Part shown: positions 16,963-21,045 of the stretch, in pieces | Layout: each line of letters starts with the position of its first letter | Numbering within the stretch: position 1 is the stretch's first letter | DNA from: a virus | Lineage: Duplodnaviria > Heunggongvirae > Uroviricota > Caudoviricetes | IMG/VR virus record: IMGVR_UViG_638341084_000009 | Reading direction: 5' to 3' (one strand) | Length of the DNA stretch: 24,438 nucleotides | Position numbers and translations under genes: made by a program | The notes under the pieces: model-generated | The model's input: only the letters and a program-made list of their open reading frames with translations | Databases searched by the model: none | Told to the model about the DNA's origin: nothing

Positions 16963-17165
16963 AACCTCACTCCCAGCGGACGACGGCGACGTCGGGTTGT
17001 CCCCAGTACCGACTCCGCATCATTGATCGCCCGGTTAAGCTCATCCAGAGAAGCCGCCGTATATTCAATTCTGCGACCATCTTTCTGGACAGACACCACC
17101 CGTTTACCGGTTAATAAATCAAGGCGCGCCTGACGTAGCGCCTGTAGTTCAGCGACTGTAACCAT
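16959..17165 (-). CDS. W: Head-tail joining protein W
   Basis: 68 aa, MVTVAELQALRQARLDLLTGKRVVSVQKDGRRIEYTAASLDEL…RRRRRPLG, lambda gpW homolog. Confidence 0.85.
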   Translation of the reverse strand: MVTVAELQALRQARLDLLTGKRVVSVQKDGRRIEYTAASLDELNRAINDAESVLGTTRRRRRPLGVRL

Positions 17166-19077
17166 TCACTCCTCCGGACAGCTTCGCTGCCAGTTCTTTC
17201 AGGGTTGGCCGGGTCGTCTCTTCTTCCCGGGATTTTGCCAGTACAGCCAGATCAAGCTGCCAGCGTTGCACGGACACACGTAATGCCGCGTAGGCATACA
17301 CCAGGCAGTCCAGCGCTTCGTTACGCCGCTTTTTGTTATCCCACAGCAGACGCATCTTTCCTTTTTCCCACTTCTCCACAAGCTCTTCCGCGACCAGTTG
17401 CTGCGCCTCTGTCTGCGAAAAAATCTCCGGATCATCAGGAAAACGGATGGCATACGACGTGGCTTCATCCGCAGGAGTGGGATCGGCTTTCATACGGGCA
17501 TAGAGAATTTCTTTTGCGGTGTCCGTCCCCACTTCACACAGATACACGCCCCGCTGATTGCGGGTTTTCGGCATGGTGATCACCGGCTTGCCATAGACAG
17601 ATGCGCCTTTTACCGGCAGCACCCGGAAAACACCGTGTTTTTTTGACCTCTGATAGACAATTTCACCATCGATCCCCCCGGTGTCCCAGCAGACACGGGA
17701 AATGGTCATTTCGGTTCCGTCTGCATGGCAGTATTTTTTGTTGATCGCCGCATCCACACGTAACAGCGTCTCTTCCTCATCGGGACGGCCCATAATGATG
17801 ATTTTATCCACCAGAAAGGCTTCCTCTCCCGGTGCCCATCCCCAGACATACATCTCAAAACGGTTTCGCTGCGAGTCAATGCCCGCCGTCAGATAAACCA
17901 CCCGGGCAGGCACCGCCGCCGTGTAACGCACCACCTTATCCATCAGTACCTGGTGATCGAGTTTTTCGCCCACGGCCTCTTCCCAGGTCTCGCCCAGCGT
18001 GGTGTTCACAAAGGTTTTCAGGCCGTTGGGATCTTTCAGTGCATCCAGCCAGTCATAGACTATCTGTATCCAGGTGGTGAACGGACTGTACGCCGTCCAG
18101 ATATGGAACGTGATGGAGCGCGGCGGCGGAATTTCATCCCCCCGGGCGCTGAAAAACATCAGGCCGTCACGGGTCCACATGCCCGTGTTTTCACAGATCC
18201 AGCGCCCGTTACTCTGGTCAAGCTCAGACTGATGGATCACGCAGCCATGATGTTCACAGAGGTAGAAAACGCTTTCGGGGCTGTCCTTCTCCCATTTAAG
18301 GCCAAAAGGCGTGGATTCATCGCCAAATTTCAGATACTGCGCCTCCCCACAGTGCGGGCAGGGCACATAGAAACGCATGAAATGCGCCGACTCGTTGGCC
18401 GCTTTTTCGATCTGGCAGGTACCTTTGATTTTAGGCGTCGAGCCGCGAATGGATTTTGGCCATACAGAGCCCTCAATACGCTTATCCCCCAGCAGGGTTG
18501 GCGAGCCCTCTTTTTCGACATCCGGCTCGAACGAGGAAAGCTCGTCATAGCAGACCACGTCCACGGATTTTTCACGGTAGTTTTTGGCGGCTGCACCGCC
18601 CAGGCACCAGAAACCGACGCCCGATGAAAAGCGTTTCAGCGTGAGAGTATTGTCACGATGTTTACGACCCAGCCATGGGGAAAGGTCTTTCAGGCATGGC
18701 ACGTTCCGAATCGTCGCCTCCACGTGAGACTTCATAAAATCTTCAGCGGCAGAATCCGTGGGCTGAAAAAGCAGACTGTTTCGGGATTTATGCTCAATAA
18801 AATACCCGACCACCCCCAGCAACATCTTTGTATAGCCAACACGGGCAGATTTAATCAGGTTAACCGTGCGAACCTGGTCGTTACCCATACAGTTCATAAT
18901 GGCGATCTGGAATGGCAGCGTTTTCCATTCTCCCTCACCATATGAAGATTCTTTAGGCAGATAATAATTTTGATCAGCCCATTCAACTGCCGTCATTGGT
19001 ACAACCCTGACCAGAGGCTGCAGCGCAACCGAAACGGCAGCCATCATATTATTCAGTTGTTGCTCTGATATATTCAT
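17149..19077 (-). CDS. A: Terminase large subunit A
   Basis: From ATG at 19075-19077: MNISEQQLNNMMAAVSVALQP…TAVEWADQNYYLPKESSYGEGEWKTLPFQIAIMNCMG… through …KRRNEALDCLVYAYAALRVSVQRWQLDL, colinear with lambda gpA. Overlaps the Nu1 3' end by 29 nt, as in lambda. Track start at 19134 is an over-extension. Confidence 0.9.
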   Translation of the reverse strand: MNISEQQLNNMMAAVSVALQPLVRVVPMTAVEWADQNYYLPKESSYGEGEWKTLPFQIAIMNCMGNDQVRTVNLIKSARVGYTKMLLGVVGYFIEHKSRNSLLFQPTDSAAEDFMKSHVEATIRNVPCLKDLSPWLGRKHRDNTLTLKRFSSGVGFWCLGGAAAKNYREKSVDVVCYDELSSFEPDVEKEGSPTLLGDKRIEGSVWPKSIRGSTPKIKGTCQIEKAANESAHFMRFYVPCPHCGEAQYLKFGDESTPFGLKWEKDSPESVFYLCEHHGCVIHQSELDQSNGRWICENTGMWTRDGLMFFSARGDEIPPPRSITFHIWTAYSPFTTWIQIVYDWLDALKDPNGLKTFVNTTLGETWEEAVGEKLDHQVLMDKVVRYTAAVPARVVYLTAGIDSQRNRFEMYVWGWAPGEEAFLVDKIIIMGRPDEEETLLRVDAAINKKYCHADGTEMTISRVCWDTGGIDGEIVYQRSKKHGVFRVLPVKGASVYGKPVITMPKTRNQRGVYLCEVGTDTAKEILYARMKADPTPADEATSYAIRFPDDPEIFSQTEAQQLVAEELVEKWEKGKMRLLWDNKKRRNEALDCLVYAYAALRVSVQRWQLDLAVLAKSREEETTRPTLKELAAKLSGGVNGYSR

Positions 19078-19558
19078 CGAGTAAATCCGGTAATTTATCC
19101 CCTGCCCGCGCACACTGATTTGCCCCCTTCGCAATAAGGGTTTTCAGATGGTCAAGATGGCGCGGTGTTAAATCAGGAAACTGTCGCTGCATGGATAAAG
19201 GGATGGAATCAAGCGTACTGGATAACGCCATTGCCAGCTTACTGAGGGCAAAAATACAGAACCCGGTGTCAATCAGTTTTCCTTTTGACACCTCATTTTT
19301 TAACTGCTGTGTAACAGCCTGTTCTGCTGTCAGTTCCCATCTGGCAATAAGCAATTTCTCCTCATAGTCGTCTTCGCTATCGCCATCAGGCACATCGTTT
19401 TTACTTCTCCTCAGATACGATATGTAAAAATCGCGCCAGGCATCCAGATCCAGTTGCCCTCGCTTATTCGATATCGGGGCACCCGGCAATTTCTGCAATC
19501 TGCGAAGCTGGCGATCGGTCAGACTTAAATGCCTGGCAACTTCAGTCTGCGTAGCCAC
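19049..19558 (-). CDS. Nu1: Terminase small subunit Nu1-like (divergent N-terminal HTH domain, lambda-like C-terminal half)
   Basis: Apparent GTG start at 19556-19558 preceded by AGGTGAGGA. N-terminus (V/M)ATQTEVARHLSLTDRQLRRLQKLPGAP looks like an HTH but is unlike lambda Nu1. C-terminal half …DTGFCIFALSKLAMALSSTLDSIPLSMQRQFPDLTPRHLDHLKTLIAKG…LLDEYI is clearly Nu1-like. Confidence 0.8.
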   Translation of the reverse strand: MATQTEVARHLSLTDRQLRRLQKLPGAPISNKRGQLDLDAWRDFYISYLRRSKNDVPDGDSEDDYEEKLLIARWELTAEQAVTQQLKNEVSKGKLIDTGFCIFALSKLAMALSSTLDSIPLSMQRQFPDLTPRHLDHLKTLIAKGANQCARAGDKLPDLLDEYIRATTE

Positions 19559-19597
19559 TCCTCACCTCGCAAAAACTCTCACCTCACAATCACAACA

Positions 19598-19705
19598 AAA
19601 CCGGTCATGTCCGGTTTACATGTCTGTTTTTTGTTCATGTCCGGTTCACAGAAGACCTGTTTTTATATTTTTCATATAGTTAACTTGAAGAGAAACCGGA
19701 CATGG
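19598..19705. promoter_or_regulatory. cosB-like region: three copies of an 11 bp element CATGTCCGGTT (two direct, one inverted), candidate terminase small-subunit R sites
   Basis: Copies at 19606-19616 and 19636-19646 (plus orientation) and 19694-19704 (inverted, as AACCGGACATG). The first is embedded in a perfect inverted repeat AAACCGG-N6-CCGGTTT (19598-19617). An A/T-rich tract (19655-19690) between copies 2 and 3 could be a bend or IHF site. All lie between the Nu1 start and cosN. Confidence 0.55.
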
Positions 19706-19741
19706 ATCCCGGAAAATTTTCATAAATAGCGAAAACCCGCG

Positions 19742-19753
19742 AGGTCGCCGCCC
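19742..19753. other. cosN, cohesive end site (12 nt overhang region identical to lambda)
   Basis: 19709-19753 reverse-complemented reads GGGCGGCGACCTCGCGGGTTTTCGCTATTTATGAAAATTTTCCGG, which I recognise as the lambda left cohesive end and adjacent bases. Spacing to the Nu1 start is about 185 bp, as in lambda. Confidence 0.8.
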
Positions 19754-19789
19754 CGTAACCTGTCGGATCGCCGGAAAGGACCCACGAAA

Positions 19790-19806
19790 ATGATAATAAT
19801 TATCAT
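19790..19806. repeat. Inverted repeat ATGATAA-TAA-TTATCAT just outside cosN (cosQ-side), candidate protein-binding site
   Basis: 7 bp perfect arms with a 3 bp centre, read directly. My recollection is that lambda has a similar palindrome at the equivalent position near its right end. Confidence 0.5.
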
Positions 19807-19960
19807 CTACATGAGGTTTATCACGACATGTGTGTACGCCATCAAACCACGAGAAATAATCAATTATTACGCAGGTATCGTATTAATTGATCTGCATCAA
19901 ATTAGCGTAAAAGCAACTTCAGATAATACAAATCAGCAACACTGAATACGGGGCAACATT

Positions 19961-20185
19961 ATGTCATCAAAGAACAGAACCCGCAGAACAACAACCCGCA
20001 ACATCCGATTTCCAAACCAGATAATTGAACAAATTAACATCGCTCTTGACCTGAAAGGTTCAGGTAATTTTTCAGCGTGGGTTATTGAAGCCTGCAGAAG
20101 AAGATTAATTAATGAAAAATATTCTCAATTTGTACCCAACAAAGACAAACACGACCAGAGCACCTGTTCAGACAGGTTTACTTAA
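19961..20185 (+). CDS. Small ribbon-helix-helix-like protein (YlcI/DUF3950-like, near cos), function unknown
   Basis: 74 aa, MSSKNRTRRTTTRNIRFPNQIIEQINIALDLKGSGNFSAWVIEACRRRL…: basic N-terminus, short beta-strand (NIRFP) then two helices, the RHH/Arc-MetJ pattern. Opposite strand to the late operon, followed by a strong terminator. I recall a similar small ORF at this position in lambda and DLP12 (ylcI). Confidence 0.6.
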   Translation: MSSKNRTRRTTTRNIRFPNQIIEQINIALDLKGSGNFSAWVIEACRRRLINEKYSQFVPNKDKHDQSTCSDRFT

Positions 20186-20203
20186 ACGACTTATATATGA
20201 CAC

Positions 20204-20231
20204 AAAAAGCGACCACTAAAGTCGCTTTTTC
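20204..20231. terminator. Bidirectional rho-independent terminator between the convergent RHH gene and PerC-like gene
   Basis: AAAA-GCGAC-(CACTAAA)-GTCGC-TTTTT: perfect stem with an A-run on one side and a T-run on the other, so it works on both strands. Confidence 0.7.
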
Positions 20232-20266
20232 TTATGGTAACAGGCAATAACTCTCTCAGATATTTT

Positions 20267-20581
20267 TTAGCATTTTTTTGACCGCGCGTTTCCGGACGTA
20301 TTCTGTTCTCCTGTCCCTTTATATCGTCGGAATACCCGCCGCTCTTCAAATCCCATTCCCAACTCAGAATGTAGTCTGTTGACCGCTTGTTTTATTTCGG
20401 TCAGGTTCACCGGTGAAACCGGAGTCCGGCGCGCCTTACGCAAACACTCTGCTCGTTTCTGTGCCGCCACTTTTCTTTTCTGGTCATCACTTAGCTGTAC
20501 CATCACTTTTGCCCATCGTTCAGCTGCTCTCCGGTACAGTCCTTTTTTCTCCAGACATTCTGCCACGTGATCATGTAGCAT
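20267..20581 (-). CDS. PerC-like (Pch-family) putative transcriptional activator, phage moron
   Basis: ATG at 20579-20581 with GGAGG RBS 7 nt upstream. 104 aa, MLHDHVAECLEKKGLYRRAAERWAKVMVQLSDDQKRKVAAQKRAECLRK…; the AE-LE--GL-RRAA-RW--VM N-terminal pattern matches my recollection of the PerC family. Gene is well supported; family assignment is from memory. Confidence 0.55.
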   Translation of the reverse strand: MLHDHVAECLEKKGLYRRAAERWAKVMVQLSDDQKRKVAAQKRAECLRKARRTPVSPVNLTEIKQAVNRLHSELGMGFEERRVFRRYKGTGEQNTSGNARSKKC

Positions 20582-21045
20582 AAGTGACCTCCGATTATCT
20601 ACAGACTGCCATCCTGAATTTACCTTCCCTTAATGAAATAACAATAAAAAACAAACCACGCAAAAACAATAAAACAACACACAAAAAAACTAAATAATAA
20701 ACAAAAATAATCACCTTATTTTATTATTTTTTGAGGGAGCAATTACTGAACAAAAAACGCTGACTATATACTCAAAACCAAACAACTATTCTGCCAATCA
20801 GGTATCATGGCAACACACGGAATTACCGTGTTTTTGCCTTCTCTGCCCATACAATACGGGCATATACTTCATTCTCTATTGTAATATTTCTATCCATGTG
20901 CCCCACTCCATTTACCTGTAAATAATATTCAAAATATTTATCACAGAAATCGTTTTTGGCCATGAACTGAGCACACTATAAAGTCCGGAACTGACTCTTT
21001 GTTAAATTACCTTAACGTTACCAGTAACACCTTCATAACAAAACA
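20582..21045. other. 464 bp AT-rich non-coding spacer between Rz and the PerC-like gene, with a strongly A+C-skewed tract at about 20636-20715
   Basis: GC content visibly far below the flanking phage genes (about 60 percent A in places). 20641-20700 contains 1 G and 5 T in 60 nt. No ORF of 60 aa or more on either strand. Probable promoter/leader for the PerC-like gene. Confidence 0.5.

Follow-up and report, generated by a model that had tools for sequence, protein, structure and literature searches.

The small genes ylcI (b4589) and ynfO (b4533), located in the prophages DLP12 and Qin of Escherichia coli K-12, are the described relatives of the gene analyzed here, a 74-aa open reading frame (ORF) in IMG/VR virus record IMGVR_UViG_638341084_000009 (24,438 nucleotides; this whole stretch is hereafter called the window). 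The K-12 copies are known to be bound by FNR in chromatin immunoprecipitation (ChIP-chip and ChIP-seq) and in electrophoretic mobility shift assays, and rank among the top-scoring FNR motifs (PMC1802558; PMC3688515); Myers et al. estimated ylcI to be the FNR target at DLP12 (PMC3688515). In Qin, the counterpart of a predicted Fur site of the window is found 233 bp upstream of nohA; it was recovered on a cloned fragment that titrates Fur in vivo, was shifted in gels with 150 nM Fur, and is assigned to a promoter directed towards nohA, the Nu1 homologue. Of the Fur clusters predicted in K-12, the nohB copy in DLP12 ranks with the strongest (PMC2189734). Binding of both regulators has been demonstrated by others for the K-12 homologues only. 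We found no functional study of the YlcI/YnfO family in the searchable literature, where the names occur only in gene lists, and the supplements of an iModulon paper and of two Fur papers contained nothing on ynfO or ylcI. An earlier sequence-only reading of the window, which had considered the family uncharacterised, was right in this respect. Databases and papers already contain the sequence, its family and, for the K-12 homologues, the sites of Fur and FNR. New are the assignment of a fold, the separation of a cos-linked Fur box from the gene, the recognition of a gene-linked FNR box with conserved spacing, the operator arrays of satellite relatives, and an unannotated gene in lambda. We do not regard this as a new kind of system; it is a moderately interesting and testable case of a small, putative ribbon-helix-helix (RHH) regulator of mobile elements.

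The late operon of the window, a lambdoid E. coli prophage, runs on the minus strand, and 741 bp around the gene are 100% identical to many E. coli chromosomes. The gene lies on the strand opposite to the late operon, between cosN and the lysis/accessory region, where the sequence-only reading had placed it, and its assignment to a ylcI/ynfO-like family proved correct. The product matched Pfam DUF3950 (PF13132) with 63.8 bits (cut-off 25; E 1.3e-17), NCBIfam YlcI_YnfO_N (NF041551) with 34.5 bits (cut-off 30) and PHROG 949 (function unknown), and the identical protein in RefSeq is WP_001300236.1, a "YlcI/YnfO family protein". When codons 1-50 were compared with those of the lambda homologue, we found 4, 2 and 16 differences at codon positions 1, 2 and 3, respectively; the ORF is therefore a real gene, with purifying selection acting on the protein. 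The Shine-Dalgarno-like GGGG is largely kept in the lambda-type alignment, with single substitutions in four loci. The first ~50 residues are nearly invariant among E. coli copies, beyond which the tails are of unrelated sequence, and lambda-like phages cease to match the DNA near codon 45, indicating that the N-terminal domain is the conserved unit. Across 1040 homologues, R16, F17, F37, S38, W40, V41, A44 and C45 are invariant, and the invariant residues of the motif K-N-I-R-F-P ... N-F-S-A-W-V-x-x-A-C are all present in the window protein. Clustering of the family at 50% left about 100 representatives, and at 90% it left 1040; members are restricted to Enterobacterales and Pasteurella. As had been supposed, the gene is conserved beside cos in many lambdoid prophages: the block 19735-20110 matched 4494 of 5426 complete E. 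coli genomes, with a median of 2 places in each genome and a maximum of 13.

DLP12 and Qin show the same layout as the window. Lambda itself encodes a 64-aa YlcI/YnfO homologue at 48109-48303 (complement), which is unannotated in NC_001416 and J02459. The records of HK629 and HK630 likewise carry no annotation of this homologue, and the GeneMark ORFs lambdap78 and lambdap79 are annotated nearby. The CRISPR interference essentiality data for lambda do not cover the unannotated ORF, and we interpret the "essential" call for lambdap79 as polarity on the late transcript. Many apparent homologous loci in unrelated genera were excluded as lambda contamination. Dozens of assemblies (Streptomyces, Cohnella, Pedobacter, Pseudomonas, metagenome-assembled genomes and others) hold the lambda right end, often on a contig of ~3.5 kb, most likely as contaminating sequencing-control DNA, and many of the "homologues" in ENA are error-ridden reads of the lambda right-end fragment. 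A weak tblastn match in Pasteurella phage Pmp7 was discarded, being antisense to an annotated repressor gene.

The 74-aa protein consists of a basic N-terminal arm (residues 1-12), a predicted beta-strand (13-18, RNIRFP), a helix (19-32), a loop (GSGN) and a second helix (37-55), followed from about residue 50 by a variable, disordered tail. Two AlphaFold2 models agreed on an extended segment at 14-18 and helices at 19-32 and 37-55, with a core predicted local distance difference test score (pLDDT) of 78-90 when an alignment of 79 sequences was supplied; the strand was not called by DSSP in the monomer model, as expected. When a profile of 30 diverse homologues was aligned with Arc by hhalign, NIRFPNQIIEQINIALDLKG fell in register with NLRWPREVLDLVRKVAEENG (P 1.2e-3), as did NIRFPNQIIEQI with Arc NLRWPREVLDLV. 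In this register, N14 and the invariant R16 fall on the base-contacting residues N11 and R13 of Arc. A weak HicB-like match in PHROGs (E 0.01) points the same way. We consider it quite probable that the protein adopts an RHH fold.

A feature that the sequence-only reading had missed is an FNR box upstream of the gene, which matches the consensus TTGAT-N4-ATCAA exactly and is identical in every lambda-type locus of the comparison. The box lies 74-76 bp before the start codon in the window, in lambda, and in chromosomal homologues of Salmonella and Citrobacter (at -76 in Citrobacter amalonaticus). When 345 kb of homologue loci were scanned, five of the six FNR boxes fell at -74/-76, with differing N4 spacers; the flanks of the Salmonella and Citrobacter boxes have otherwise diverged. 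The spacing to a -10-like hexamer fits a class II FNR promoter in the window, Salmonella and Citrobacter, and transcription in the window would start near 19935, giving a 26-nt leader. Immediately upstream, an inverted repeat overlaps one half-site of the FNR box. The 41 bp before the FNR box, including this repeat, show a mean pairwise difference of 2.6%, as compared with 13.8% at third codon positions, and no further copy of the half-site of the repeat was found in the window. We regard the repeat as a candidate operator of the RHH protein. Convergent, overlapping transcription of ybcW and ylcI is known from K-12 RNA-seq of non-induced cells, and a DUF3950 gene was detected in O157:H7 RNA-seq; these data support indirectly the transcription of YlcI-type genes in non-induced cells. 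The Salmonella homologues, in S. enterica subsp. diarizonae and arizonae (loci L053/L054, 4001-4171), have a perfect or near-perfect FNR box at -76 and lie between sopB (IpgD family) with the sigE chaperone gene and a Peptidase_C69 gene, in a pipD-like position in Salmonella pathogenicity island 5 (SPI-5).

The sequence-only reading had pointed to a different element, the inverted repeat ATGATAA-TAA-TTATCAT, as a possible operator of the gene. The palindrome is present at 19790-19806, is perfect (7-3-7), and ends 155 bp before the ATG. It is contained in a Fur box that matches the consensus GATAATGATAATCATTATC at 17 of 19 positions, a score that was not reached in any of 100 shuffles of the window and that exceeds that of the validated K-12 nohA site (15-16/19); the box lies 237 bp from the Nu1 start. 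A GATAAT-N-ATTATC core is found 5-8 bp past cosQ in lambda, Qin, DLP12, N15, HK225, Stx1_9793, PhiR12_2* and the prophages L094/L095. The box beside cosQ is kept in at least five unrelated right-hand contexts. N15, HK225, Stx1_9793, PhiR12_2* and L094/L095 possess the box without a ylcI-like gene, and no Fur-like site was found upstream of DUF3950 genes in Shiga toxin (Stx) phages of the HK97 type, in satellites or at chromosomal loci. Because the palindrome is kept at cosQ without the gene and is absent at other family members, it is not a gene-specific operator; by its sequence and distribution, it appears to be a host Fur box of the cos flank, linked to cosQ rather than to the gene. In phages 3W and Lambda_4C10, similarity ends directly behind cosQ and the box is missing, indicating that it is not indispensable. 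In N15 (locus L100, 31-62), the two arms of the palindrome are altered symmetrically (CGATAA...TTATCG).

Intergenic conservation is lowest at 19805-19845 (13.5%), where the sequence leads from the box to the conserved promoter block and contains an indel of 7 bp. The insertion in the window, AGGTTTA at 19814-19820, is shared by no other lambda-type locus in the comparison and opens a spurious 51-aa ORF (19790-19945). We rejected this ORF as a gene, as it had no family match and most of the differences between window and lambda alter the amino acid, according to a reading of the alignment by eye with no separate tally.

Outside the E. coli lambdoid prophages, most DUF3950 members were found in islands resembling P4 or phage-inducible chromosomal islands (PICIs), between int/alpA and the primase operon and on the opposite strand. 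Upstream of these satellite genes, 12-bp palindromes are repeated, each at a fixed distance. One subfamily has GTG-N6-CAC at -100, -77 and -31, another TGGTA-N2-TACCA at -46 and -13. Box sequences of P4/PICI-like islands include TGGTACGTACCA and GTGTTTAACAC. The cores of the boxes vary by island and track the residues aligned to the Arc contact positions: AKKN pairs with TGTGCGCACA (Klebsiella, Rahnella), and xYKG with GTGT(T/G)TAAACA (Xenorhabdus, Serratia). One E. coli island carries two adjacent DUF3950 paralogues, each with its own distinct repeats. Fixed, repeated boxes that track the contact residues are the signature of autoregulating repressors at a divergent switch, and DUF3950 proteins may repress the P4/PICI-like satellites. 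In loci L055-L092, a conserved GC-rich hairpin (agaagcccgg...ccgggcttcg) lies ~180 bp upstream of the DUF3950 gene, followed by three palindromic boxes and an invariant GTCAA at about -65; this architecture had no Rfam match. The PICI-like island of E. coli CP027459.1 (L005, 5590-6363; also L006-L009) has two adjacent DUF3950 genes. The second (120 aa) combines DUF3950 with the N-terminal ~53 residues of a small terminase (Terminase_2), a part that is 64% identical to the small terminase (TerS) of the HK97-type prophage beside the island.

Taken together, these data lead us to propose that the gene may encode a small, dimeric, Arc-like RHH DNA-binding protein of moron-like character, made from its own promoter antisense to the late operon. 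The promoter would be a class II FNR-dependent one, and an uninduced lysogen would then produce the protein when oxygen is lacking, as in the gut. If the satellite homologues are a guide, the protein probably represses its own promoter through the inverted repeat overlapping the FNR site, and further regulatory targets are possible. The Fur box would be a separate host site, independent of the gene and linked to cos. We lean slightly towards this model as a whole, that is, an FNR-controlled, self-regulating prophage RHH repressor with an independent cos-linked Fur box. It favors one half of the role guessed by the sequence-only reading, lysogen-expressed regulation; the other half, packaging control, found weak support. 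A wider extension strikes us as speculative and rather doubtful. According to this, DUF3950 proteins would be RHH switch repressors of the mobile elements of Enterobacterales, the satellite copies, some of them fused to a helper-like TerS DNA-binding domain, acting at the int-proximal divergent promoter and the lambdoid copy, that of lambda included, being FNR-induced and perhaps acting in trans on prophages or satellites. As this copy adjoins a Fur box conserved beside cosQ, host oxygen and iron status would both be read at the packaging site.

Several observations weigh against the proposed model. Regarding the fold, the structure prediction suggested by the sequence-only reading returned an extended segment followed by two helices, and the profile alignment gave the register of Arc, but Foldseek gave no significant match (the top matches, NikR and ParB, had E > 1), searches of PDB sequences with the single protein and with two profiles were not significant (CdbA, E 0.9), and hhalign against CopG was null. 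The protein had no significant sequence match to Pfam Arc. Regarding the promoter, a consensus sigma-70 scan of 19500-20700 found none, a result to be expected if the promoter is activator-dependent. In K-12 grown in glucose minimal medium, no FNR-dependent change of ylcI, ynfO or nohA was detected (PMC3688515), and the sole reporter fusion, made in the nohA direction, was nearly inactive (PMC1802558). Furthermore, HK97-type Stx phages carry the gene with neither FNR nor Fur box. Regarding autoregulation, the region upstream of the lambda-type gene showed no obvious repeated palindrome like the satellite boxes, those boxes could be the target of some other regulator of the island, and the FNR box occupies the place of satellite box 2, so that it may be the protein's own site.

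This last point leads to one alternative explanation, that the TTGAT-N4-ATCAA box is the operator of the RHH protein itself, with FNR binding incidental or competitive and with autoregulation in place of FNR activation. The position at about -75, the failure to detect FNR-dependent expression in K-12, and the pattern of kept half-sites with varying spacers, as for any dimeric binder, would agree with this. However, the box is an exact FNR consensus that FNR occupies in vivo and in vitro in K-12, it shows class II spacing to a -10-like hexamer in three genera, and it is present as a single copy, unlike the satellite arrays, so we consider this explanation rather unlikely. It is very unlikely, in our judgment, that the palindrome 19790-19806 serves as the operator, possibly shared with Fur, as the sequence-only reading had suggested. 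Its perfect symmetry, the preference of RHH dimers for symmetric sites and its location in the same intergenic region speak for such a role; nevertheless, the close Fur match, the binding of Fur to the K-12 homologue (PMC2189734), the retention of the box in cos flanks that have no ylcI-like gene and its absence from every other DUF3950 context argue against it. Moreover, the palindrome is a single copy 155-175 bp upstream, as compared with satellite boxes that are repeated within 100 bp, and the sequence beyond it is poorly conserved.

The protein might instead be an accessory packaging factor that binds in or next to cos and modulates terminase or the termination of packaging. The gene occupies the junction of lysis and packaging genes in two packaging systems, that of lambda (Nu1/A with cos) and that of HNH-TerS-TerL Stx phages, in which the DUF3950 gene is 41 bp from the HNH gene, and in two proteins of PICI-like islands, DUF3950 is joined to the DNA-binding N-terminus of a small terminase. 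Only these fusions hint directly at a connection with packaging. However, association with cos did not extend throughout the family. Homologues in satellites (int-primase) and in chromosomal islands (SPI-5 between sopB and pipD; Citrobacter) have no cos nearby, HK97-type phages carry the gene away from cos, and lambda-type cos prophages and phages exist without it. The gene is also antisense to the late transcript, with an apparently host-regulated promoter. The established biochemistry of lambda packaging is not known to require more than terminase, IHF and proheads. No such factor is listed in PMC4669245, and we consider a packaging role quite unlikely. An orphan RHH antitoxin or anti-defence protein appears extremely improbable: a weak HicB-like match in PHROGs (E 0.01) points in this direction, but the gene has no conserved partner, being followed by a convergent PerC-family gene in the window, a convergent ybcW in lambda and DLP12, DUF1398 in Qin and nothing in phage 2851. 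In place of an adjacent co-transcribed toxin gene, a terminator and the convergent PerC-family gene lie downstream in the window, the variable tail has no conserved toxin-binding segment, and PADLOC returned no defence match of note.

The features of the locus are listed in Table 1.

Table 1. Features of the cos region and the 74-aa gene in the window.
Feature	Position	Strand	Remarks
Large terminase (TerL) gene	17149-19134	-	
Nu1-type small terminase (TerS) gene	19049-19558	-	Divergent from the 74-aa gene across cos
cosB-like repeats of CATGTCCGGTT	19599-19704		
cosN cohesive-end sequence aggtcgccgccc	19742-19753		Reverse complement of lambda GGGCGGCGACCT; identical to lambda and Qin
Presumed cosQ-equivalent heptamer aggaccc (reverse complement of GGGTCCT)	19777-19783		Identity with lambda right end; 3 bp from Fur box
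Fur box GAAAATGATAATAATTATC	19786-19804		Contains palindrome 19790-19806
Second, weaker Fur match	19792-19810		Overlaps the first
Inverted repeat ATCAATTATTACG-N7-CGTATTAATTGAT	19859-19891		13-nt arms; right arm overlaps FNR half-site
FNR box TTGATCTGCATCAA	19887-19900		Exact consensus; centre 19893.5, -41.5 from predicted start
Predicted -10 hexamer GATAAT	19922-19927	+	GACAAT in lambda and K-12; 22 nt after FNR box
Shine-Dalgarno-like GGGG	19950-19953	+	7 nt 5' of ATG
74-aa YlcI/YnfO (DUF3950) ORF	19961-20185	+	Antisense to late operon; ATG start
Hairpin AAAAAGCGAC-N7-GTCGCTTTTT	20204-20230		Between convergent 74-aa and PerC-family genes
PerC-family (Pch-like) regulator gene, 104 aa	20267-20581	-	Pfam PerC E 4e-44; shares hairpin terminator with 74-aa gene

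The heptamer in Table 1 is named after the sequence and position of cosQ in lambda. CosQ is known as a conserved 7-bp termination site (PMC4669245). In the cosB region, two of the four repeats are inverted; the region differs from lambda cosB, and DNA similarity of the window to lambda begins only at ~19709; this difference suggests another packaging specificity of the Nu1-type TerS. Downstream of the gene, the hairpin had, as RNA, predicted energies of -12.3 kcal/mol (plus strand) and -14.7 kcal/mol (minus strand), with z scores of -2.5 and -2.8. The strong bidirectional terminator claimed by the sequence-only reading is thus terminator-like on both strands, and plausibly a bidirectional terminator, but of moderate, not outstanding, strength. 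It was not listed by a consensus terminator scan, because its T-run belongs to the stem. Rfam searches of 19400-20800 and of four satellite loci gave no match. The Rz/lysis genes come next beyond the PerC-family gene in the order of the window, and the tail variant of the window protein travels with a PerC-family gene in the genomes examined. In lambda-type cos prophages without a ylcI-like gene, the slot contains, on the ylcI strand, an unannotated ORF whose product begins with a signal-peptide-like segment (L094, 2669-2920, plus strand), and an annotated small "TonB family protein" occupies the same slot on the other strand (L094/L095, 3283-3609, minus strand).

The value of these results lies in a fold, a regulatory logic and concrete experiments for a widespread domain of unknown function, encoded by one of the commonest uncharacterised E. 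coli prophage genes, present in lambda itself. If an FNR-controlled RHH repressor is indeed made, the prophage would possess a regulator that is expressed in the lysogen and coupled to anaerobic conditions such as those of the gut. In prophages of enterohaemorrhagic E. coli, the gene adjoins PerC/Pch virulence regulators. The satellite relatives, if they act as proposed, could explain the silencing of P4/PICI-like islands. In addition, with a Fur box abutting cosQ in most lambda-like phages, iron status may affect transcription across cos or the termination of packaging.

Over its first 53 residues, the window protein is 87-91% identical to E. coli family members, among them the 77-aa form of the Qin type. 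Its gene shares with ylcI and ynfO the position between cos and the lysis/moron region, the orientation, and the upstream Fur and FNR boxes. It differs in a tail that is unrelated after about residue 50, in the insertion at 19814-19820, and in its downstream neighbor, a PerC-family gene as compared with ybcW or DUF1398. Like the K-12 nohA/nohB sites, the palindrome would place a host Fur box inside a lambdoid prophage; in contrast to those sites, it abuts cosQ and is kept in lambda-like cos flanks whatever the adjoining gene. The stx1 promoter is another iron-regulated, Fur-controlled promoter in a prophage late region. The gene also resembles lambda bor and lom, which are late-region genes transcribed independently of pR' and candidates for expression in the lysogen, and bor lies just beyond the ylcI homologue on the same strand in lambda and DLP12. 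However, bor and lom encode envelope proteins, whereas the 74-aa product is predicted to bind DNA in the cytoplasm, and sites for the host regulators FNR and Fur lie near its gene. Among satellite switch repressors, such as Stl of the Staphylococcus aureus pathogenicity islands (SaPIs) and those of P4-like elements and PICIs, the likeness lies in the DUF3950 members found at an int-proximal divergent promoter with boxes over both promoters, although DUF3950 is unrelated to SaPI Stl in sequence and size and the window gene belongs to a full prophage, not a satellite. Finally, the protein shares with Arc and Mnt of phage P22, members of the MetJ/Arc superfamily, a small size, a phage origin, the strand motif N-[IL]-R-[FW]-P-x-[EQ] in register and a strand-helix-helix arrangement, and by analogy would be expected to bind symmetric operators as a dimer or tetramer; it differs from them in its long basic N-terminal arm, its variable tail and its genomic role, Arc and Mnt being regulators of the immI antirepressor.

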